Source of the DNA: an uncultured virus (IMG/VR IMGVR_UViG_3300018080_000162)
Lineage: Duplodnaviria > Heunggongvirae > Uroviricota > Caudoviricetes
Direction: 5' to 3' (one strand)
IMG/VR virus record: IMGVR_UViG_3300018080_000162
DNA: 64,000 nt
Positions within the stretch are counted from its first letter, which is position 1. The number at the start of each line of letters is the position of its first letter. Of this stretch, positions 2,890 through 61,135 are shown piece by piece. A program made the translations under genes and the position numbers. The notes below the pieces were generated by a model. That model saw nothing but the letters and a program-made list of their open reading frames with translations, did no database searches and was not told the origin of the DNA.

Positions 2890-3329
2890 TTAACCTCAGG
2901 TATTGTGACAAATGCAAGTTACTGGAAAAGTGCTTTATTTGGGAGTCTGCTTACGACTCCGACAGGAAAAATGTGCCTTATCGAAACGAGAAACACTGGC
3001 ATGGATGGAGAGGCAAGCCGCCTATATGGTGTCCGAGCTTATTGTCTCATTTGAAAATCACCAAGAACTTCAGCCGGAAGAGAATACGCGGTTTGAGACG
3101 GCATCGGGATGTAAGCAATGCGAAGCTTATCTGCAAGCGTTGTTACGAAGACCACGGGATTGAATGGACATACAGTCTTAACAAGATGTGGAGGAAGCAT
3201 AGGCATTTGTTTTGCATTGTGGCTGACGGCAAGGAGTGGGGCTTGAATGAATGCGTTTTCTCTGGATTTTCGCCTCCACCTGACTGTTGTCTCTACAAGT
3301 TTGAGCATGTCATTTGTAAAGAAAGGTAA
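2886..3329 (+). CDS. tandem double ZLEH domain protein
   Basis: CDKC...PPIWCP, then ICKRC...PPPDCCLYKFEH. Confidence 0.7.
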   Translation: MINLRYCDKCKLLEKCFIWESAYDSDRKNVPYRNEKHWHGWRGKPPIWCPSLLSHLKITKNFSRKRIRGLRRHRDVSNAKLICKRCYEDHGIEWTYSLNKMWRKHRHLFCIVADGKEWGLNECVFSGFSPPPDCCLYKFEHVICKER

Positions 3330-3332
3330 CAA

Positions 3333-3746
3333 ATGCGGAAGATAACATCGGAGAACTACGTAGAGGCCGCTGTCAATACGGAATCTTGTGATTACGATGC
3401 TATTAGTAAGAGAATGGTACAACCTATCATTATCCGCTTAGACCACGCAGGGAAGGGTCTTTGCACGGAGGCGGGCGAATTTCAGGATATGCTCAAGAAG
3501 CATATCTTCTATGGCAAGCCGCTTGACTTTGTGAATCTCATGGAAGAAATCGGTGATGTCATGTGGTATGTGGCTTTGGCTGTTGATGTCCTTAAGAAAC
3601 TCGGTGTTGTGGAGAGTTTTGATGAGGTTTTGACGTTGAATATCGAGAAGCTGGCGAAACGGTATCCTGAGAAGTTCAAGGAGTGGGATGCTCTCAATCG
3701 CAATCTGGAGGGCGAACGTGCTATTCTGGAAAAGAAAGAAGAATAG
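3333..3746 (+). CDS. MazG-like nucleotide pyrophosphohydrolase
   Basis: TEAGEFQDMLKKHIFYG...EEIGDVMWY...NIEKLAKRYP. Confidence 0.85.
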   Translation: MRKITSENYVEAAVNTESCDYDAISKRMVQPIIIRLDHAGKGLCTEAGEFQDMLKKHIFYGKPLDFVNLMEEIGDVMWYVALAVDVLKKLGVVESFDEVLTLNIEKLAKRYPEKFKEWDALNRNLEGERAILEKKEE

Positions 3747-4086
3747 ATGCCCAATTTGTGGAACGGAGTCTGCTCCAAAGCATGATATTTGGCGAGAGCA
3801 CGAGTATTGCAAGGACTGTTGCAGGAATGTCGAGTTGAAGATGGCATGGGAGGAATACCGGAACACCATATCGAATGGCAGATTTTCTTTTTACATCGCT
3901 TCGCTTTGCATCCTTGCTCTTGTTGTGATTCAAGGAGGGCCTTATTCTATAGGAGAACTATGGTGGTGGCTGCTGATTATAGGGCCAAGCTTGAACGCCT
4001 GCGCGAATATGATGACGGCCATCAAGGAGAAAATCAAAGAGAGGAGTTTGCGCAACGATATATTTATTCATCTTCTGAAGGGGTAG
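3718..4086 (+). CDS. small Zn-ribbon/membrane protein
   Basis: CPICG...CKDC plus two hydrophobic segments; start uncertain. Confidence 0.5.
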   Translation: MLFWKRKKNRCPICGTESAPKHDIWREHEYCKDCCRNVELKMAWEEYRNTISNGRFSFYIASLCILALVVIQGGPYSIGELWWWLLIIGPSLNACANMMTAIKEKIKERSLRNDIFIHLLKG

Positions 4087-4089
4087 AAG

Positions 4090-4335
4090 GTGTTGAATAA
4101 AGAGGTCTGCAAGAAATGTCATCAGGAATCCGATTTCTGGTTGGGTTCAAAGCACAAGAAATGGACGGAAAGGGATGAAGAGTTTTGGAATGAAGGACAT
4201 GTTTTGTGTCCTCGGACGCAGAGTAATCTTGCGGATTATATCATTGGGGGAAAAGTGTCTATTACGGAAAGGATACCGGATGGATGTCCTTTCTTCCTTG
4301 AACACATAGTATGTCGGGAGCGTGAGGGATGTTAA
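4090..4335 (+). CDS. ZLEH family protein
   Basis: MLNKEVCKKC...LCP...PDGCPFFLEH. Confidence 0.8.
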   Translation: MLNKEVCKKCHQESDFWLGSKHKKWTERDEEFWNEGHVLCPRTQSNLADYIIGGKVSITERIPDGCPFFLEHIVCREREGC

Positions 4336-5012
4336 AATACCTATTGCCGGTTCTGCTTGCTGTTTCAATCGTGAATGGAAGGGAACGTGTTCGACGAGTC
4401 AGCGAAGCGGACTTGATAGCTAATTGGCAAAAGACAGCAGAGGAAGCCGTTGAGAAGAAAGACTGGCTCAAAGCCTTGCAGAATTACGATGCGATTCGAA
4501 GTCGGTACAAAGAGAGCAATAAGGAGAAGTATGACGTTTTGGGTTCCCACATGAATAAGATTTTCTGGTATTGCTTGATGTATTATTGTCGTGGCGAGAA
4601 AAAGGATTACAAAGAAGCCAAGTGGTACATTGACCAGCGGGTCAGTCGTAATTTGAAAGACGAGCAAGCCAGAACTTTTCAAGGATGGCTTAACAGCCAG
4701 AACAACGAAGGAAAAATCCAAGAATTTCTTGACAAGAAGTATTGGATGGTTATAAAGGAGTGTCTTGTTGCCAAGAAAAACGGGGAGGGATTTTGTGAAG
4801 CGCAGTGGTGGTTGAAAAAGAGACTGGAGATTGTTCCTGACGACGAAAAGGCACGGATGTATCTAAAAACACTCAAGGCAAATCAGAAGGCGCAAGAAGA
4901 TGAAAGTAGAACCGACTCACTACGAGAGACTGGTGAAGAACTTCCCACTGGTGGCATCCAAAGAGTACATGGAGACGATGCAGAGGGAAGCCATCAAGGA
5001 CGGCGACCCTAA
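4329..5012 (+). CDS. putative secreted helical (TPR-like) protein
   Basis: signal-like MLKYLLPVLLAVSIVNG; internal repeat EAKWY...DEQAR / EAQWW...DEKAR. Confidence 0.55.
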   Translation: MLKYLLPVLLAVSIVNGRERVRRVSEADLIANWQKTAEEAVEKKDWLKALQNYDAIRSRYKESNKEKYDVLGSHMNKIFWYCLMYYCRGEKKDYKEAKWYIDQRVSRNLKDEQARTFQGWLNSQNNEGKIQEFLDKKYWMVIKECLVAKKNGEGFCEAQWWLKKRLEIVPDDEKARMYLKTLKANQKAQEDESRTDSLRETGEELPTGGIQRVHGDDAEGSHQGRRP

Positions 5013-5955
5013 CGACCTAAAAGGCTTTGTTGAGCTTTTGTCGAAAGACGCCAACCTTGCAAATCTTTGCGCGAACAATGTTCTGCGCTACGAGGGCATT
5101 ACATCTAACGCAAACCTGTTTTACCACGTCTATCATTTCAGAGCCGAAGGAAAGCGTGTTTACGAAGTCAGCGATGGTCTTGCATGGCTGTTGCAGAACA
5201 CAAATCTGGACAATACGGAAGTCTCGCTGGTACGTCCTCCCTATCCGTCCATCTACGTGAAGATTCCGTTGGGTCTGTTTACCTTGTTAGATGCGAGAAC
5301 AGGAGAACACAAGATTGAGGGTTTCTATTTGCGTTCTTATCTCAAAAACGATAAGCGCGTGTTCAGAATCATCGCTACAGCCGTCGAGAATGACGCTTCT
5401 TCTTTTGCTCTCGATGACAGTTACTTCTTTTTCTGGATGGAGTTTGACGAGCATGGCAAAGTGAAGGAAGAGTTGAGCAGGGTCATGCGAGAAGAAGGAA
5501 AGAGATGGACGGTGATGCTGTCGGACGCGACTCAGGAGAATGCCAAGAAGATTCCTGACTTCTTCCGTTTCGTAATGAACGTGATTCTCTACAGCAACTC
5601 GGCTGACGTTGACTGCGATTGGCATCCGGCTTGGCAGAAACTTTTTGCGCAAAGACAGAAGGCTCGGAAGGAAAGGCAGAAGAAACGCCTTAGGAGGGAA
5701 CTCGATGCGTTAGGCAACCCAAGAAAGCTGCTTGGCGGGAAAATTGTCATCTTGCGGGAAGAGAAGAATGCGTATCGAGAAGCGCATAAGACCGGCAGGC
5801 AAGTTAAAGTGCGATTCAGGGTGGCAGGACATTGGAGGAGTCAGCCCTATGGCCCGAAGATGTCTTTGAGAAGGCCCAAGTGGATTAAGCCTTATTTGAA
5901 AGGGCCGGATGCGGCTGATGTTGTAAATCGCGTTCACAGGCTCGGAAAAGACTGA
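4900..5955 (+). CDS. phage hypothetical protein
   Basis: 351 aa; basic C-terminal motif VAGHWRSQPYGP...WIKPYLKGP. Confidence 0.7.
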   Translation: MKVEPTHYERLVKNFPLVASKEYMETMQREAIKDGDPNDLKGFVELLSKDANLANLCANNVLRYEGITSNANLFYHVYHFRAEGKRVYEVSDGLAWLLQNTNLDNTEVSLVRPPYPSIYVKIPLGLFTLLDARTGEHKIEGFYLRSYLKNDKRVFRIIATAVENDASSFALDDSYFFFWMEFDEHGKVKEELSRVMREEGKRWTVMLSDATQENAKKIPDFFRFVMNVILYSNSADVDCDWHPAWQKLFAQRQKARKERQKKRLRRELDALGNPRKLLGGKIVILREEKNAYREAHKTGRQVKVRFRVAGHWRSQPYGPKMSLRRPKWIKPYLKGPDAADVVNRVHRLGKD

Positions 5956-6011
5956 AAAATTCTCCAATTGAGGGTATAATGAGGAAGGATACCCTTGTTG
6001 GAGGATTTGCC

Positions 6012-6488
6012 ATGAAGAAAATATTGCCGTTGTTAGTGTTTCTGTTTTTTACAGGTGCAAAGGAGGAGAAAGAGCAGGAGACGGTCAAGGTCTTCTTGAA
6101 ATTGCCTTCAACAGTGGAGGTAAGAGCTTATTGCTGCTGTGAAAAATGTTGTGGAAAATGGGCCAAAGTGCCGAAGGAGGAGCGGAAAACGGCAGCCAAG
6201 AAGCCGCTCTATGTGGATGGAGTTTTCCAGAAAGGCATTGCCGTTCCGAAGGAAGGCCCCATTCCTTACTTCACTCGTATTTCCATTCCTGGATATGGTA
6301 ACTTCGAAGCAGATGACACAGGTGGCTGGATGAACCGCAAGTGGGAGAAGGAAGGACGTTTTTGCATAGAAGTTCGCTTTGAAGACCATGAAGAGGCAGT
6401 AGCGTGGGGAGCGAAGAAACTTCCAGTTTCTTGGTCGATTTTAGTCGAGGATTCCGAAAAGAAGGATAGAAAGGAAGAAAAGAAATGA
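6012..6488 (+). CDS. 3D-domain (lytic transglycosylase-like) protein
   Basis: signal peptide; AYCCCEKCCG, IPGYG...ADDTGG, IEVRF..HEEAVAWG. Confidence 0.75.
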   Translation: MKKILPLLVFLFFTGAKEEKEQETVKVFLKLPSTVEVRAYCCCEKCCGKWAKVPKEERKTAAKKPLYVDGVFQKGIAVPKEGPIPYFTRISIPGYGNFEADDTGGWMNRKWEKEGRFCIEVRFEDHEEAVAWGAKKLPVSWSILVEDSEKKDRKEEKK

Positions 6489-6781
6489 GCCAGTTTTCCG
6501 AGGAGTTAGCCTTTATCCTTGTCGAGACGGAGGATGGCAAATTCAGCGGCCAGACATTCACAAGCGGTTTAGATGCAGTCAAGGCTTCCTTCGACGACTG
6601 CTGGCAGATGAGCGAGAAGACAAAGAAGGGCAGAGGACTGTTTGTGCGGGTGAAATTCAACGAGCAAGGAGAAATTGTTGAACAGGAGGTCAAGTCGAAG
6701 ATGTTGGGTGTGCTCCAAAAGCGTAAACCCTTGTCAGTAAGGCTCGGAGAAGGTGAAATTGACCCTGAAAAAAAGCCATAA
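6485..6781 (+). CDS. hypothetical protein
   Basis: 98-aa ORF coupled by ATGA overlap. Confidence 0.6.
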   Translation: MSQFSEELAFILVETEDGKFSGQTFTSGLDAVKASFDDCWQMSEKTKKGRGLFVRVKFNEQGEIVEQEVKSKMLGVLQKRKPLSVRLGEGEIDPEKKP

Positions 6782-16382: not shown

Positions 16383-16593
16383 GAAGCTCAAAGAGTTCGA
16401 AGAGGTCTGGTCGAAGCCCTGCGTGGCAATACTCTGTCCTGCCGTAAGAAAAGAAGGCATTAAGGGGAAGCAGCACGTTTATCTTAATGACGACCCTCCT
16501 TTGGGTTGTCCTTATTACCTTGAGCACATGGTCAGCAATTATGGCAAGGAGAATATGAATGGAACTAAAAAAAGGCGACATGTTCAGTCGTAA
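16330..16593 (+). CDS. ZLEH family protein
   Basis: MLVKKLCRDC...PPLGCPYYLEH. Confidence 0.8.
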   Translation: MLVKKLCRDCWKRKQWIEKLKEFEEVWSKPCVAILCPAVRKEGIKGKQHVYLNDDPPLGCPYYLEHMVSNYGKENMNGTKKRRHVQS

Positions 16594-17008
16594 GAACATC
16601 GAGCCTATCTTTTTTACGGCTAATTCGGTCGTGACGAAGGATGGGCGGCTTGTGATGGGTGCGGGCGCGGCTCTGGATGCGAAAAAAGCCTTTCCTAATA
16701 GCGACAAGGATTTTGGAGCACTGGTTAAGGCTTATGGCATCAAGACGGACAATGGATTGCGTTTTGGCGTTCTCTGGTCGAGAAAGAGGATGCTCGGAGC
16801 GTTTCAGACAAAGTATCATTGGAAAGAAAACTCAGACATGGATTTGATATTCTACGCGGCCATTATGCTTTCTGGATTTTCACGCAGAGTCGGAATGCTG
16901 AATGTCAACTTTCCGGGTATCAACTATGGTGGCTTACAGCGGTCTGAAGTGCTTGAGGTCATTCAGGACATCTGGAAGACTGACCCGATTGTTGTTTGGG
17001 AGAAATGA
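16559..17008 (+). CDS. macrodomain-like (ADP-ribose binding/hydrolase) protein
   Basis: TANS...VMGAGAA, FQTKYHW, FPGINYGGL. Confidence 0.7.
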   Translation: MELKKGDMFSRKNIEPIFFTANSVVTKDGRLVMGAGAALDAKKAFPNSDKDFGALVKAYGIKTDNGLRFGVLWSRKRMLGAFQTKYHWKENSDMDLIFYAAIMLSGFSRRVGMLNVNFPGINYGGLQRSEVLEVIQDIWKTDPIVVWEK

Positions 17009-40392: not shown

Positions 40393-40609
40393 GCGGTGTT
40401 ACAATAAATACTCGCCAATGTTGTGGGGCACAAGCATGTATAATGCGTGGAAGAGAAATAATCTTGTGTATTGTCCTATGGAGCGAGATAAAACTAATGG
40501 TGAGCATTGGGCTTGGATTTCGACCAAAGAAAATCCTCCTACGGAATGCCCTTTTGCTCTTGAACATCAATTGGAAATGCAAGATGCCCAAAATCAGGAT
40601 GAACCATGA
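40370..40609 (+). CDS. ZLEH family protein
   Basis: MLNRKICKRC...PPTECPFALEH. Confidence 0.8.
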   Translation: MLNRKICKRCYNKYSPMLWGTSMYNAWKRNNLVYCPMERDKTNGEHWAWISTKENPPTECPFALEHQLEMQDAQNQDEP

Positions 40610-40781
40610 AGTCTGCAAGAAGTGCAGGCATTATGGAGGGAAAGCGTATCAGAATCGCAAGGAGCATTACTGGTTCTGTCGAAATCCTTCTATCATAGGC
40701 CCATCATCAAGAGTGTATTCTCGGTTCACGAAACCTGAGTTTTGCGAATATGAATTTGAGCATGAGGTAACGGCGACATGA
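40584..40781 (+). CDS. ZLEH family protein
   Basis: EVCKKC...PEFCEYEFEH. Confidence 0.75.
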   Translation: MPKIRMNHEVCKKCRHYGGKAYQNRKEHYWFCRNPSIIGPSSRVYSRFTKPEFCEYEFEHEVTAT

Positions 40782-41074
40782 ACAAAGATTGGATAATGGT
40801 CAACGAACAGGTCTGCAAGAAATGCGAGAGGCAGCATCAATGTTACAAGAAGCGCATTGAGAGAACTGTCCAGGTGGGTTCGACCGCCACGGTGCTTACT
40901 CACTATAACCCGTTCAACTCTACGTACTCGCCGCCACCACTGGATACGCGCTCACTGACAAGGCTGCTTGTGGCCCATGTCGTGCCCGAACATTGCCAGT
41001 ATTTCTTCGAACATCAGGTCACGGAAGACCTTGCCAAGAAAGGAGTTATGGAAAGCGGAATGATTTTCGAGTAA
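40778..41074 (+). CDS. ZLEH family protein
   Basis: QVCKKC...PEHCQYFFEH. Confidence 0.75.
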   Translation: MNKDWIMVNEQVCKKCERQHQCYKKRIERTVQVGSTATVLTHYNPFNSTYSPPPLDTRSLTRLLVAHVVPEHCQYFFEHQVTEDLAKKGVMESGMIFE

Positions 41075-41157
41075 TTTTTTCAAAAAGGTTATCGAAATTC
41101 TCCGCGAATGCCGTATGATAGGTTAGTTGAAGGCATCTGCGAAAGCAGGTTAAAAAC

Positions 41158-42978
41158 ATGAATGAATTAGTCAAGAGCGAGATTAAAATAAAAAGCCACC
41201 CGAAGGCAAAGAAGGAGACGGTAGAACACTTGCCATCTGGAGAGCAGGTATTCTGCCGTCAACAGCATTTGACACAAGAGGCGGTTACGATTGTTCGTGA
41301 AGAGATTCCTGAAGATTGGTCATGGTTTGACAAGATTCCTCCAGACCTTTGCTTCTGCCGTTGTGGTTCCCAATATCACAGCCATGTCATTTTACATCGC
41401 AACAGAAAACAGTATATCAAAAAGCTGTTTTCAAGATTGGCTTGTCCAAATTGTGGAAGCCATGACAATCTTGAAGGCAGTTCGAACGGCAGTCTTTTTT
41501 TGATTCGACAAATGAGCGAGGAGGCTGGCAGTAAGGTGTGGAACAACACCATAATCGCTCATGGTGTTCTCAGAGACAAGCGAAAGAAATTCGAAGAAAA
41601 AGTTGCGGCAGCGGGGTTGGATTTGAAGAAGATAGCCAAAGAGTCTAACGACTTCATAGAGCAAAGAAGAAAAATCAAACGGAAAATCAGGCAGAAAATT
41701 GCCAAATTCAAAGAGCACTTGAATAAAGACGAGACGGCAAAAGCAAAAACTGCTGAGGTCAGATACAGCAAACTCAAACAATGGCTTTTTCAAAGAATCG
41801 AAGATGCCAGAAACGATTGGCACAGAGAATATGACGCTACAAGAACCAGTGATGTTTATACGAAGGCTTATATGCGGCAGCAAGGACAGCAGAAGCTTGA
41901 TTTCTTATGTTCCAACACTTTCGAAGGCGTTATAAGAAGCCAGTATGGTCATTGGAAGACATACAATGCCCTTCGCAAAAGCGGTGACGAAAACGCAAAG
42001 CCTCCCTACAGGGAAAAAAAGTATTTCATGCTGAGTTGGGACAAAACGTGCATAACCTTTGAGAATGGTTGCATTCTCTTGAGAACGTCTCAGAATTGTC
42101 CAGTGCAACCAGCGTTTCCATGTTCTCATAGTCAAAGGGTTCAGTCTGTTACCATAACCTTTAACAGGCAGCTATGGTGCAACATATTGACACTCTCCTA
42201 TAAGAAGGAAACACCAAAAAAGCCGCCAGGAGAAGGGATTGCAAGTATTGATATGGGGGAGCGTTATCTCTTTGCTATCTACGATGGAGAAACTGTGTTG
42301 CTTGTCGATGGAAAAAGTTTGCGCAACAAACGGCAATACCAAAATAAGGTGAAGGCAAAATCAGCCAAGAAACTGACCGTTGACCACAGGAAGCTTACCA
42401 AGAAGCAGAAGAGAAAGGGTTTCAAACCTCGCAGGAAAGATTCCAGACGGCGAGTAAAAGCATTGCAGGGCCAGCGACGGAGCTTGTATTCCGTGGATAA
42501 CCAGATTGAAGACGAGGAGAGAAAAGCTGTTGCCACTGCACTGTCGCATCTCGTAGAAAGAAAGATAGGGACTGTGTTTATTGGTGCATTGTCTGGAATT
42601 CGAGACAGTCACATCAGCAAAAAAAGGGCTAAGAAAGAAGCAAGGCCAAGAGATTACAAAGGGTCTGTTCAAAACCAGCGAATGAATCAGTTTCCAGCGG
42701 GCAAGCTGACGCAGATGCTAAGAATAAAATGCAACGAGCATGGTATTGTGCTCAATGTTGTCGAAGAGTCTTATACTTCGAAAACATGCCCAAAGTGTGG
42801 TACGATAAACAATCCAGGGAAAAATAACTACGTCTGTAAGAAATGCAAACATTCTGGACATCGTGATGCAGTGGGAGCGATAAACATTATGGTGAGAGGG
42901 ATTGGCAAACACGGTTCGCTCCATCCGATTATTCAAGGTAGAAAGTTCAACCCTCAAAGAAAGTGCTACGCTTTCTGA
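41158..42978 (+). CDS. CRISPR-adjacent TnpB/Cas12-like RNA-guided RuvC nuclease, rearranged catalytic Glu
   Basis: RuvC-I GIASIDMG (D365); RuvC-II position VFIGAL lacks Glu; EESYTSKTCPKCG (E537); CKKC; RuvC-III RDAVGAINI (D570); 606 aa. Confidence 0.88.
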   Translation: MNELVKSEIKIKSHPKAKKETVEHLPSGEQVFCRQQHLTQEAVTIVREEIPEDWSWFDKIPPDLCFCRCGSQYHSHVILHRNRKQYIKKLFSRLACPNCGSHDNLEGSSNGSLFLIRQMSEEAGSKVWNNTIIAHGVLRDKRKKFEEKVAAAGLDLKKIAKESNDFIEQRRKIKRKIRQKIAKFKEHLNKDETAKAKTAEVRYSKLKQWLFQRIEDARNDWHREYDATRTSDVYTKAYMRQQGQQKLDFLCSNTFEGVIRSQYGHWKTYNALRKSGDENAKPPYREKKYFMLSWDKTCITFENGCILLRTSQNCPVQPAFPCSHSQRVQSVTITFNRQLWCNILTLSYKKETPKKPPGEGIASIDMGERYLFAIYDGETVLLVDGKSLRNKRQYQNKVKAKSAKKLTVDHRKLTKKQKRKGFKPRRKDSRRRVKALQGQRRSLYSVDNQIEDEERKAVATALSHLVERKIGTVFIGALSGIRDSHISKKRAKKEARPRDYKGSVQNQRMNQFPAGKLTQMLRIKCNEHGIVLNVVEESYTSKTCPKCGTINNPGKNNYVCKKCKHSGHRDAVGAINIMVRGIGKHGSLHPIIQGRKFNPQRKCYAF

Positions 42979-42989
42979 AGGGGAAAATG

Positions 42990-43170
42990 TGAAGTAGCTG
43001 TATCGCTCTTTGACAATTGAATAAAGAGCCTGTGCAGGCTAAAAGCAGCTACCGGATAGATACCTGTATATCTGGTCAGCAGAGTGGCGAAACAATCACG
43101 CCGCCAAATGCGGGTAACGCCGCATTCTGGTAAAGGCCATGACAGCTTACAGGGCTGTCTCTGTATTTCA
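42990..43170 (+). ncRNA. candidate tracr/omega-like scaffold RNA
   Basis: several complementary stems (GTAGCTG/CAGCTAC, GCTCTTT/AAAGAGC, AATGCGG/CCGCATT, GACAGC/GCTGTC) between effector and array. Confidence 0.45.
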
Positions 43171-43372
43171 TGTTTCTTTGGATTCATGGAATGCAGATGG
43201 CTCGTGTCCGTTTGGTAGATGGAATTGGTTGTTTAGCTGAGAGTCTGACTCTTGGTGATTCTGTCTTTTGGACTGAACGTGACAATTATAAAACTCTACA
43301 TGCGCAGGTCAGGGACGGACTTCGGACACTATACGTTGTGGGCAATTTTGTTCTTTCGTACAGGATTTTGGT

Positions 43373-44019
43373 GTCTGTCCCACGTATGCAGGGATGGATT
43401 GCATCTCATTGACAATGTTTCCAACCATGACTACGTCTGTCCCACGTATGCAGGGATGGATTGGCAAAGGTCATCGGCGAACGCGCCAGCGAGGAGTCTG
43501 TCCCACGTATGCAGGGATGGATTGCCAAGTGTTTCTCGAACTCGCTTCCGTGCGAGTCTGTCCCACGTATGCAGGGATGGATTGAGCTACGGAGGCCAAA
43601 GAGATGCCTACGGATTCGTCTGTCCCACGTATGCAGGGATGGATTGAGCTACGGAGGCCAAAGAGATGCCTACGGATTCGTCTGTCCCACGTATGCAGGG
43701 ATGGATTGGGCCTCCGCTGTATCGGCGTGGTGCCCGACTCGTCTGTCCCACGTATGCAGGGATGGATTGCAAAGTCAGATAGCATAAATATCATATTCAT
43801 AGTCTGTCCCACGTATGCAGGGATGGATTGCACGGGCTTACCACGGCCCACCCATGAGCATAGTCTGTCCCACGTATGCAGGGATGGATTGGCGACGGAA
43901 GAAACACTCGTGGGCCTATCACGTTCGTTTGTCCCACGTATGCAGGGATGGATTGGCGACGGAAGAAACACTCGTGGGCCTATCACGTTCGTTTGTCCCA
44001 CGTATGCAGGGATGGACTG
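43373..44019 (+). CRISPR. CRISPR array, 11 repeats / 10 spacers
   Basis: 29-nt repeat GTCTGTCCCACGTATGCAGGGATGGATTG at 43373, 43435, 43496, 43556, 43618, 43680, 43741, 43802, 43863, 43927, 43991; spacers 31-35 nt; last two repeats degenerate, so leader is on the left. Confidence 0.97.
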
Positions 44020-44079
44020 ACGCTTACAGCTTAGGCTACGGTTTTATTGTTGAGGATGTCTGGCACTTGGAGCCTGAAC

Positions 44080-44337
44080 ATGCTAAACAAAAACGTCTGT
44101 AACAAATGTTGGAAAAGAAAGACAGGTCGGTCGATGTCGAGGATATGCAGGCCTTGTTATTTTCCCGCCAATGTTGTTTCTCCAAGTCTTTCTACGCTTT
44201 GGAAAAACCATAATCTGACGCTGTGTGTCGAGCTATATGAACCCAAGAAGAAGGCTGCGTCTTTTCTCCTGTCAACAATGGGAGAGCCGCCTGAAAAATG
44301 TCCCTTCCGTCTCGAACACGCTTTGGGAACGCAATAA
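44080..44337 (+). CDS. ZLEH family protein
   Basis: MLNKNVCNKC...PPEKCPFRLEH. Confidence 0.8.
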   Translation: MLNKNVCNKCWKRKTGRSMSRICRPCYFPANVVSPSLSTLWKNHNLTLCVELYEPKKKAASFLLSTMGEPPEKCPFRLEHALGTQ

Positions 44338-44829
44338 ATGCTCAGTAGAAAAGTCTGCAAAGCCTGTAGATATTTCGCACCCAACAAGCTCATTCAAAAG
44401 AACTTTTCATGGGTATGGACTGGTGAGCTTCCATGCTCTTTGAAACAGTATGAAGCAAAGATAAAGGAATTGCCACCAGAAGACTGCCCTCTCAAACTGG
44501 AACACACGCTGGCATTGACTGGCTTTGTGGAAAAAGCCAAGATGCTTTTTGCTGCTTGGCTACAGCCTGTCGTTACAAGCATCGGTATTGGACTTTTCGC
44601 TTCTCTCATCTTGCTGCTCATCCTGGTTGACATGATGCAGAGCTACGATGACAAGAAAGAAAAGTGCGAGAAAGTCAGTCAGCAGGAAACGGTGAAATTC
44701 CTCAGAAGAGAGGTTCATCGTCTGAAGGAAAAGCTCAAAAATGCTGAACAAGAAAATCTGCAAACGATGTATTCGAGAAACAGGGAAAGCGTGGACTCAC
44801 CACATGAGTTTGGAGTGGAATGGAGATGA
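44338..44829 (+). CDS. ZLEH domain + transmembrane helix + coiled coil
   Basis: MLSRKVCKAC...PPEDCPLKLEH; IGIGLFASLILLLILV. Confidence 0.75.
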   Translation: MLSRKVCKACRYFAPNKLIQKNFSWVWTGELPCSLKQYEAKIKELPPEDCPLKLEHTLALTGFVEKAKMLFAAWLQPVVTSIGIGLFASLILLLILVDMMQSYDDKKEKCEKVSQQETVKFLRREVHRLKEKLKNAEQENLQTMYSRNRESVDSPHEFGVEWR

Positions 44830-55834: not shown

Positions 55835-56341
55835 CTATAGTTTTTTCCCTTGTTTTTTGAGAAATCTATAAAAGAGTTCGGGTCTGGAAGTTTTGAGGCG
55901 ATGACAATTGACACAGAGAGTCCAAAGATTTGTGACATCATTATTGTTTTTATCGTTATCTTTGTGGTCAACGTCGAGTTGGCAAGGGTCAAGTGCGATG
56001 AATCCGCAGGCTTGACAACAGTCTGCCTTCACAGCCCGATAAGGTTCCATTGTTATTTTATGGCATGTTTTGCAATAGCTGTAGAGTTCTTCTCGTCCAT
56101 AGCGTTTGCCTTTATAGAATTCATCTGGAGGCAGATACCGGCGGCATTTTGCGCATCTTTTTAGGTCGTTTTTTCTTTGTAGCCTTTTCCCTTTTCCATG
56201 TTTGGCATATTCGGCTATTCTGTGAGGGTCAGTAGCACAGGTCTTGCAGTATCCCACATAGCCGCTTCTGACAGAATTTCGTTTGTGAAAATGGCTTAGC
56301 GGTTTTTCTTGATGACACCACTTGCAGGTCAAGGTTTTCAT
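55835..56341 (-). CDS. HNH endonuclease with N-terminal Zn fingers
   Basis: CQACG...LDVDHKDNDKNNNDVTNLWTLCVNCHRLKT; two N-terminal CxxC...CxxC units. Confidence 0.85.
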   Translation of the reverse strand: MKTLTCKWCHQEKPLSHFHKRNSVRSGYVGYCKTCATDPHRIAEYAKHGKGKRLQRKNDLKRCAKCRRYLPPDEFYKGKRYGREELYSYCKTCHKITMEPYRAVKADCCQACGFIALDPCQLDVDHKDNDKNNNDVTNLWTLCVNCHRLKTSRPELFYRFLKKQGKKL

Positions 56342-61056: not shown

Positions 61057-61135
61057 CAGGGTGTGGGGAAGTCTGGCCTAACCCGCTTGGTTTGGAACCA
61101 AGAGAACGCTGGTTCGAATCCAGCCGCCCTGACCA
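61057..61135 (+). tRNA. tRNA-Pro(TGG)
   Basis: acceptor CAGGGTG/CGCCCTG, anticodon arm CTTGG-TTTGGAA-CCAAG, T-arm GCTGG-TTCGAAT-CCAGC, encoded CCA. Confidence 0.92.

Follow-up and report, generated by a model that had tools for sequence, protein, structure and literature searches.

In this study, we analysed a cassette at 41.1-44.0 kb of a 64,000-nucleotide (nt) stretch of DNA from an uncultured virus (IMG/VR record IMGVR_UViG_3300018080_000162, Caudoviricetes), which we refer to as the window. The cassette contains the gene for a TnpB-family nuclease of 606 amino acids (aa) (41158..42978, + strand), a strongly structured non-coding region directly downstream of it (42979..43300), and a CRISPR array on the same strand (43373..44019), the first repeat of which starts 394 nt after the stop codon. 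All three occupy one gap between the flanking genes, with 83 nt left over on the left side and ~60 nt on the right. A preliminary description, made from the letters of the window, had reported a 606-aa protein with D365, Gly/Ala at the usual site of the RuvC-II Glu, E537, a CPKC...CKKC zinc finger and D570, an 11-repeat array 394 nt downstream on the same strand, and no tnpA, cas1, cas2 or cas4 in the window, and all of these were confirmed by translation, by repeat finding, and by PADLOC and Pfam scans of open reading frames (ORFs), respectively. PADLOC was applied to 136 + strand ORFs of at least 60 aa, among which Cas12-type models were matched by the 606-aa protein alone. The Pfam scan covered 65 + strand ORFs and 29 - strand ORFs of at least 150 aa and gave no cas1, cas2, cas4 or tnpA match; neither a Y1 nor a serine recombinase was found among the same ORFs. 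The nuclease gene is present as a single copy in the window, and no TnpA was found there as transposon context.

Based on NCBIfam profiles, alignment and fold search, the 606-aa protein is classified as a TnpB-family member of the clade that carries Gly at RuvC-II and a compensating Glu elsewhere (TnpB2 or RIIr-5). RuvC-I is represented by Asp365 (codon 42250..42252, in ASIDMGER), a position that is Asp in all 100 aligned rows. The canonical RuvC-II Glu position is occupied by Gly476 (42583..42585, in VFIGALSG; Gly in 95 of 100 rows and Glu in 3), and the alternative catalytic Glu is Glu537 (42766..42768, in VVEESYTS; Glu in 95 of 100 rows and Pro in 3). RuvC-III contributes Asp570 (42865..42867, in GHRDAVGA; Asp in 98 of 100 rows), and between the last two lies a four-cysteine (C4) zinc finger composed of C544/C547 (CPKC) and C560/C563 (CKKC) (42787..42846); all of these codons are on the + strand. 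D365, G476, E537 and D570 are invariant in a 30-row alignment of the query with 29 relatives. On these alignments the relocated-glutamate RuvC triad (D365, E537, D570) is intact and the zinc finger is present, and the earlier assignment to a rearranged-site TnpB clade is borne out by the 95 of 100 family members that share each of the Gly and the ExYTS Glu. The profile matches place the protein in the TnpB family. The NCBIfam model guided_TnpB (NF040570) scores 122.8 bits against a cut-off of 100 over residues 204-578, Pfam PF07282 (Cas12f1-like_TNB) scores 68.5 bits against 26.3, and PHROG 506, annotated as 'transposase', is matched with an E value of 1.2e-32. No Cas12 subtype model of NCBIfam or PADLOC was passed: NCBIfam Cas12f2 gives 22.4 bits against a cut-off of 450, which does not reach family level, and PADLOC Cas12f, Cas12u3, Cas12u4 and Cas12u1 give 63, 38, 37 and 27 bits, all as partial matches. 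Sequence matches in the PDB are confined to residues ~500-585.

As stated in the preliminary description, the protein is larger than a TnpB of ~400 aa, the size of its best relatives, and has a helical insertion after the KVWN motif. A HMMER search of 1.84 billion representatives gave 1722 matches at E values of 0.001 or less, only six of which, including the protein itself, reach 1e-30 or less. The best matches are 32-38% identical, mostly 370-430 aa long, and span residues ~210-600 only; among the best 150, no best matched stretch begins before query residue 212. No close relatives were found in viral contigs. Alignment with 29 relatives reveals four pieces found in the query only: an N-terminal extension (residues 1-77, 41158..41388, + strand) with Cys65/67/69, followed just downstream by Cys96/99, for which the structural model is of low confidence; the insertion of ~80 aa after KVWN in the recognition (REC) region (residues ~135-217, 41560..41808, + strand), which is a gap in all 29 relatives, corresponds to predicted helices and includes a query-only block at ~135-215; and two basic insertions at residues ~405-425 and ~483-500. 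With residues 1-245 as query, a search of the Atlas gave scores of at most 0.81, which is chance level.

The AlphaFold2 model has a mean predicted local distance difference test (pLDDT) score of 73, with values below 50 for residues 1-75, and places helices at residues 111-151, 156-185 and 190-217 and E537 directly after a strand of residues 531-536. In Foldseek, this model matches Cas12f chains best, and their template modelling scores (TM-scores), normalised to the length of the target, reach 0.70. After these come the TnpB structures of ISFba1 and ISDra2 along with mimivirus Fanzor2 and Cas12m; the highest identity among the matches listed, 18%, belongs to ApmFanzor2 chain 9b0l_P. The model thus gives the protein a predicted TnpB/Cas12f fold. 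In a quick tree of 100 rows built with FastTree, to which LalCas12r was added as outgroup, the query lies at the base of a 41-row clade of ~400-aa proteins on a terminal branch of 1.27, compared with a median of 0.65, and the fork that places it there has a support of only 85. The oversize, the query-only insertions, the long branch and the single copy without TnpA can be read as signs of exaptation.

The CRISPR array has 11 repeats, each 29 nt long, that alternate with 10 spacers of 31-35 nt, mostly 32-33 nt, and its start-to-start spacing is 60-64 nt. Nine of the repeats are exact, one has one mismatch and one has two, and dinucleotide shuffles of the window lead to an expectation of 0.00 matches. 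A single RuvC effector gene adjoins the array on the same strand. The two degenerate repeats are the last ones, and the gene-proximal end is therefore the likely leader end. Eight of the 10 spacers are unique, spacer 4 being equal to spacer 5 and spacer 9 to spacer 10, and their GC content ranges from 0.25 to 0.72, a width that fits capture from diverse sources. The identical spacers lie in tandem duplications of the repeat-spacer unit at 43556-43679 and 43863-43990, the second of which also copies a GTTTG variant of the repeat; this suggests growth by recombination or slippage rather than by Cas1-Cas2 integration. The repeat is predicted to fold into a 9-base-pair (bp) stem, three pairs of which are G-U, that closes a 9-nt loop and leaves a tail of 2 nt at the 3' end (-10.7 kcal/mol).

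Searches for the repeat and spacers elsewhere were negative within their scope. The exact repeat is absent from viral, genome and metagenome collections. A scan of 185,579 species genomes for two copies of the 3' motif gave 25 loci without a related array, and when viral contigs were scanned with a relaxed motif, 12 loci came up, of which every one inspected proved to be a different sort of tandem repeat with a 60-nt unit; these scans are weak negatives because they require exact motif identity. Downstream of the genes of 30 relatives, the best repeat-like motifs agree at 12-17 of 29 positions, which is no signal. No part of the window qualified as a protospacer even with up to 7 substitutions allowed, and the first 24 nt of spacer 1, the sole spacer scanned there, are absent from viral contigs. 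The sequencing runs listed as containing the stretch include no RNA run; it is present in three metagenome DNA runs, two from sediment and one from seawater, but two of the three hold only identical low-depth fragments, and contigs of these runs end at the first repeat, so that spacer variants are unreadable there. As a separate observation, a 22-nt stretch near the 3' end of the nuclease ORF (42888-42909) matches the end of the repeat plus the start of spacer 2 at 18 of 22 positions, which may be chance.

The region between gene and array is predicted to be unusually structured. The minimum free energy (MFE) of 42979-43401 is -153.8 kcal/mol, compared with -123.8 +/- 5.6 kcal/mol for shuffled sequences (z -5.37; none of 100 shuffles as stable), and the signal lies within 42979-43278, where 200-nt segments have z values of -5.0 and -3.6. 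The last 200 nt of the nuclease ORF give +0.6, and 48 background segments of the window average -0.6 (standard deviation 1.4), with a minimum of -4.85 in one segment. Among 25 relatives, the 200 nt past the stop codon have a mean z of -1.6, with 5 of 25 at -3 or below, versus -0.6 and 1 of 25 for in-ORF controls. The folded region is located where omega RNAs are expected, and on its fold energy it is a candidate omega-RNA-derived or trans-activating CRISPR RNA (tracrRNA)-like scaffold, which could be made from either strand. Rfam gave no match at an E value of 1 or less across 40500-44500, and a search of phage records with the folded RNA gave only a chance 29-nt match. At the end of this region, an element at 43294..43322 (+ strand) resembles an anti-repeat or, alternatively, a degenerate 'repeat 0'. 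Its positions 43294-43320, the strongest pairing partner that the repeat has in the vicinity, can pair with repeat positions 1-21 through 9 + 6 + 4 bp (19 pairs, free energy -25.8 kcal/mol), and in the MFE fold the initial 9 nt of repeat 1 (43373-43381) are paired with 43312-43320. Read in direct register, 14 of the 29 positions of the element are the same as in the repeat, and most of these lie in its 3' half. The pairing is no more than suggestive of an anti-repeat.

A promoter consensus scan of the region gave 8 matches against 4.3 expected. Upstream of the nuclease gene there is a weak sigma-70-like match (41092..41119, + strand; TCGAAA-16-TATGAT, 9 of 12 positions), identified by consensus alone. 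The best match of the region, CTGACC-16-TATAAT (10 of 12), is on the - strand at 43312-43285 and is aimed away from the array and into the folded region, so that the structured RNA could derive from the - strand.

Array association is recurrent within the clade. In a sub-lineage within the same 41-row clade as the query, all three evaluable members have an array directly past the stop codon: L006, a provirus encoding a 479-aa protein (4731-6490), L089, a metagenome contig encoding a 520-aa protein (74-1922), and L180, a provirus encoding a 520-aa protein (3001-4849). Their arrays start 3-20 nt past the stop and have 5-6 type I-E-like repeats of ~28 nt with a 61-nt period. Two further members are not evaluable for an array: L088, whose 533-aa protein is 76% identical to that of L006, lies on a contig that stops 11 nt past the stop codon, and the contig of L090 ends inside the gene. 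The D/G/E/D residues and the four cysteines are retained in all four complete proteins (L006, L088, L089 and L180). The proteins of L089 and L180 are 94% identical, but none of the four spacers is shared, and no Cas1 match was found in the L006 or L180 provirus records. When aligned with the repeat of the window, the L006 and L089 repeats agree at 16 of 28 positions, including CCC...GGGAT. Phages or prophages therefore contain TnpB derivatives of the rearranged-site type beside arrays that turn over, and the L006/L089/L180 lineage has the appearance of a separate type V-like group linked to arrays. Separately, LR756508.1, a 484-kb record of an uncultured huge phage, matches the query protein at 3 places and the L006 protein at 10, and the TnpB clade is therefore multi-copy, and presumably mobile, in at least one huge phage.

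The closest experimental parallel is Cas12r from the Thermus phages Lalka, which the available part of a preprint describes as a 564-aa TnpB-like nuclease from a thermophile-only TnpB branch (bioRxiv 10.64898/2026.04.20.719267). According to the same part, its array has 29-bp degenerate repeats that share elements with the host type I-E repeat and 32-33-bp spacers, and the system interferes with plasmids and phages without tracrRNA or adaptation genes, using a 5' ARG protospacer adjacent motif (PAM) that overlaps the type I-E AAG PAM; spacer uptake is ascribed there to the host type I-E adaptation module (bioRxiv 10.64898/2026.04.20.719267). Like Cas12r (LalCas12r locus, PQ109076.1 51815-53614), the window system has a phage-borne TnpB-like nuclease of similar size (606 versus 564 aa) and a short same-strand downstream array of 29-bp repeats and ~32-33-bp spacers without adaptation genes, and the predicted fold of either repeat extends over its whole length except for a 2-nt 3' tail. 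LalCas12r differs from the query in that its RuvC-II Glu is the canonical one and the C4 finger pattern is absent (E/P at the two positions where the query has G/E), and there is no detectable sequence similarity between the two proteins (best BLASTP E value 0.58). Furthermore, the gene-array gap of Cas12r is 15 bp with no tracrRNA needed, whereas here 394 nt with a structured RNA separate gene and array. On paper, then, the window system resembles Cas12r, and the sequence comparison indicates that it is not a member of the Cas12r family.

With regard to the active site, the nearest known proteins are TnpB2 and the Fanzors. The accessible sections of PMC10530073 describe the relocated-Glu enzymes of this type as active, with the alternative Glu required for DNA cutting, and report them to be without collateral cleavage, and those of PMC10691335 list the same rearrangement as RIIr-5, the largest rearranged group. 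The statement in the preliminary description that this arrangement is known and active is in line with these sources. The query shares with these proteins the core fold, the Gly in place of the RuvC-II Glu and the compensating Glu before YTS and the zinc finger. Its alternative Glu is 61 residues past the Gly, compared with ~45 in the enzymes of the sections available (PMC10530073, PMC10691335), a wider spacing due to a query-only basic insertion. TnpB2, RIIr-5 and Fanzor proteins differ in being transposon-borne or eukaryotic and in using a single omega-RNA guide, whereas the query is ~200 aa longer than the TnpB2/RIIr-5 clade, single-copy, without transposase and followed by an array. The L006, L089 and L180 systems share with it the D/G/E/D and C4 pattern and the same-strand downstream arrays, but their proteins are only 25-27% identical to the query, no long RNA separates gene from array, and their repeats keep the classical type I-E central stem-loop. 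In addition, the proteins of this lineage (L006, L088, L089 and L180, 479-533 aa) are enlarged by a C-terminal extension, while the query has the N-terminal and REC insertions.

Cas12f, Cas12n and the TranC intermediates are likewise effectors of TnpB size in whose loci a gene for a non-coding RNA separates the nuclease from the array, and Cas12f chains are the best structural matches to the query, but it falls below the Cas12f, Cas12n and Cas12m subtype profiles. To our knowledge, the Cas12f, Cas12n and TranC families keep the canonical RuvC-II Glu. The array, in turn, resembles type I-E arrays in its 29-nt repeat, its ~32-nt spacers and the CCC...GGGAT signature of the L006 and L089 repeats. 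A canonical type I-E repeat has 29 nt, a central GC stem-loop and an 8-nt 3' handle, with cas3, cse and cas1-2 genes nearby. When the window repeat is placed in the type I-E register, in contrast, just 3 bp of the inner stem are left, and there are no type I cas genes in the window.

Taken together, these results identify the cassette at 41.1-44.0 kb as a probable type V-like CRISPR unit, compact and derived from TnpB, of a probable large phage. A working nuclease-array unit is favoured because of the structured RNA in the gap, the array-linked sub-lineage and the experimental analogue Cas12r, and also because of the intact active site, the lineage-specific enlargement and the compact cassette between the flanking genes. 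In such a unit, the array would be transcribed from its gene-proximal side and cut into guides, each composed of a repeat-derived hairpin handle and roughly 18-20 nt of spacer. The nuclease would bind these guides, possibly aided by the upstream folded RNA, whose 43294-43320 element would be able to pair with the 5' half of each repeat, and the complex would read a motif 5' of its target and cut the DNA of rival mobile elements or phages. New spacers might be acquired in the way proposed for Cas12r, with a type I-E-like Cas1-Cas2 of the host acting in trans, or by recombination, a route suggested by the two tandem spacer duplications.

Several observations weigh against this reading. We searched 1.5 kb downstream of 59 viral-contig loci that carry relatives (24-46% identity in the best segment) with a k-mer array finder, and only one of them, L006, has an array within that distance; at L005, L019, L029, L036, L037 and L050, repeats are farther off or upstream. 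An alignment search with the L006 group gave 80 metagenome loci, 53 of which have at least 300 nt past the stop codon, and an adjacent array is seen at only one of these 53, L089; in the case of L124 and L125 there are 3 repeats ~2.6-2.8 kb away. The idea that homologues are array-adjacent thus holds for L006, L089 and L180 (three of three) but not for the family at large, so that this comparison neither refutes the preliminary description nor clearly upholds it. The shared synteny of these three loci may also reflect common descent of related proviruses rather than three independent events. A word-based search of a 5.8-billion-protein index returned the protein itself and one weak match, which leaves no close homologue as evidence for co-inheritance of gene and array. 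Neither the folded RNA nor the repeat has meaningful similarity to the regions downstream of the relatives' genes by blastn or nhmmer. As for the anti-repeat, the background pairing energy in the window has a mean of -13.3 kcal/mol (standard deviation 3.6) and a minimum of -31.6 kcal/mol, so the value of the element is ~3.5 standard deviations from the mean yet inside the background tail, and a decayed repeat would fit the element equally well. No promoter-like site was found on the + strand between gene and array, and no protospacers were found in 50,697 phage records or 72,556 plasmids. Since the window covers 64 kb of a larger contig of 77.6 kb, cas genes may be present elsewhere in the phage. 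Finally, the array has a type I-E-like geometry, and host Cascade could therefore be its real user.

This last point leads to the strongest of the alternatives, in which the array is an orphan type I-E-like phage array whose transcripts host Cascade and Cas3 process and use, and the TnpB-like gene acts alone through an omega RNA of its own, the two having nothing in common but their cargo slot. It is well established that phages can carry arrays without cas genes, and the 29-nt repeats, the spacers of mostly 32-33 nt with a 60-64-nt period, and the 16 of 28 positions shared with L006 and L089, whose repeats are clearly type I-E-like, would all suit such use, as would the lack of adaptation or other effector cas genes in the window and of arrays beside most TnpB relatives. 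On the other hand, the type I-E register leaves the repeat with its 3-bp inner stem only, and the predicted hairpin runs end to end with a 2-nt tail, as in Cas12r. No related array was found elsewhere, albeit in scans that are weak negatives owing to their need for exact motif identity. Moreover, gene and array share a strand and are tightly packed around a structured RNA, the pairing recurs in L006, L089 and L180, and the same layout works with a TnpB-like protein in Cas12r, as far as the available part of the preprint goes (bioRxiv 10.64898/2026.04.20.719267). We therefore consider host use of the array unlikely. If it were true, the locus would be an ordinary TnpB beside an ordinary orphan phage array.

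Alternatively, the gene could belong to an ordinary selfish TnpB, that is, a mobile or recently immobilised obligate mobile element-guided activity (OMEGA) element, with the folded 3' region as its single-guide omega RNA and the array as an unrelated, possibly decaying, chance neighbour. The generic TnpB model does score best (122.8 bits versus at most 63 for any Cas12 model), the structured RNA is at the usual omega RNA position, the array ends in two degenerate repeats and contains duplicated spacers, and the copies in LR756508.1 (3 matches to the query, 10 to L006) indicate that the family is mobile in phages. However, 606 aa with lineage-specific insertions are atypical for the mobile TnpBs of this clade, the gene is a single copy with no TnpA found in the window, and nine of the 11 repeats are identical, which favours maintenance over decay. 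This scenario also requires two independent insertions into one intergenic gap, and an array-linked sister lineage exists; we regard it as improbable. Least credible of all is a domesticated, non-cutting RNA-guided DNA binder of the TldR or Cas12m kind that silences host or rival genes, since the three catalytic residues and four zinc-finger cysteines are intact and match the clade consensus, despite documented TnpB domestications of such a kind in the sections available of PMC10691335 and 10.1101/2023.11.30.569447.

Within the favoured reading of a nuclease-array unit, a more specific origin is possible, and we put it forward only tentatively: the system could be an independent second phage version of the Cas12r idea, derived from the relocated-glutamate TnpB2 clade. 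The TnpB2 clade is also the one that gave rise to the eukaryotic Fanzors. In this scenario, an ancestral omega-type scaffold of ~320 nt would have been kept as a trans-acting RNA, a type I-E-derived array would have been captured, and spacers would come from the class 1 adaptation machinery of the host.

The genomic setting is compatible with a phage. Coding is almost entirely on the + strand and the GC skew is steadily positive over the window. The genes that could be named with Pfam and PHROG are auxiliary functions frequent in large phages: MazG, a CobT-like von Willebrand factor type A (VWA) protein and a CobS-like AAA_5 ATPase, a nicotinate/nicotinamide phosphoribosyltransferase, a dTDP-4-dehydrorhamnose epimerase, a radical S-adenosylmethionine (SAM) enzyme, glycosyltransferases, a kinase and a PP2C phosphatase. 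A PHROG family was matched by 19 of the 38 proteins scanned. The source is probably a large phage; because no structural genes were found within the 64 kb, this assignment is likely but unproven from the window alone. Several other features of the window deserve mention. A large expansion of small ORFs of ~60-100 aa, which typically start with MLNKxIC..C and end with PPxxCP[FY]xLEH, extends over 1032-51929 (+ strand), with 68 matches to a loose regular expression, every one on the + strand; the members scanned have no Pfam or PHROG match, and the nuclease-array cassette sits between two of them. A 149-aa ORF at 16559-17005 (+ strand) matches the macrodomain part of the PADLOC DarG model (E value 5.7e-10) and could be a phage counter-defence against DarT-type toxins. 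The ORF at 55835-56338 (- strand), the sole - strand ORF of at least 150 aa with a Pfam match, is similar to HNH endonucleases (E value 7.2e-5) and is possibly a homing endonuclease. The only tRNA in the window is a tRNA-Pro (anticodon TGG) at 61057-61135 (+ strand).

The active-site rearrangement, transitions from TnpB to Cas12, and phage-borne miniature type V systems are already known. The suggestion that the system is undescribed thus stands in part: the rearrangement has been reported, and so have the Cas12r phage TnpB-like nucleases with 29-bp type I-E-like repeats, but an array-linked effector with a relocated Glu was not found in print. Our literature search on this combination yielded a general survey in the Proceedings of the National Academy of Sciences and Fanzor papers alone, and did not cover the V-U6 to V-U45 tables of PMC10691335, which may hold such a group. 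What would be new, then, is an array-linked effector from the relocated-glutamate clade, together with its insertions and the combination of a long folded RNA with type I-E-style repeats.

If the nuclease uses the array, the cassette would represent a CRISPR effector built on a relocated-glutamate active site. A compact, array-programmed member of an active-site type reported, in the sections available of PMC10530073, to lack collateral cleavage could also interest builders of editing tools. Considered along with L006, L089, L180 and Cas12r, such a unit would point to a repeated joining, by phages, of transposon nucleases to type I-E-style arrays, with the host as provider of the spacers. It would also bear on the origin of type V systems. 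As outlined in the accessible sections of PMC10691335, Cas12 arose from TnpB on ~50 independent occasions, nearly always with the array downstream and with enlargement of the protein, and an insertion beside an already existing array is left open there as a route other than omega RNA duplication. The system would help to weigh array capture against omega RNA duplication, and, should the more tentative chimeric origin be true, it would be a living class 1/class 2 chimera that illustrates the array-capture route from transposon to CRISPR.

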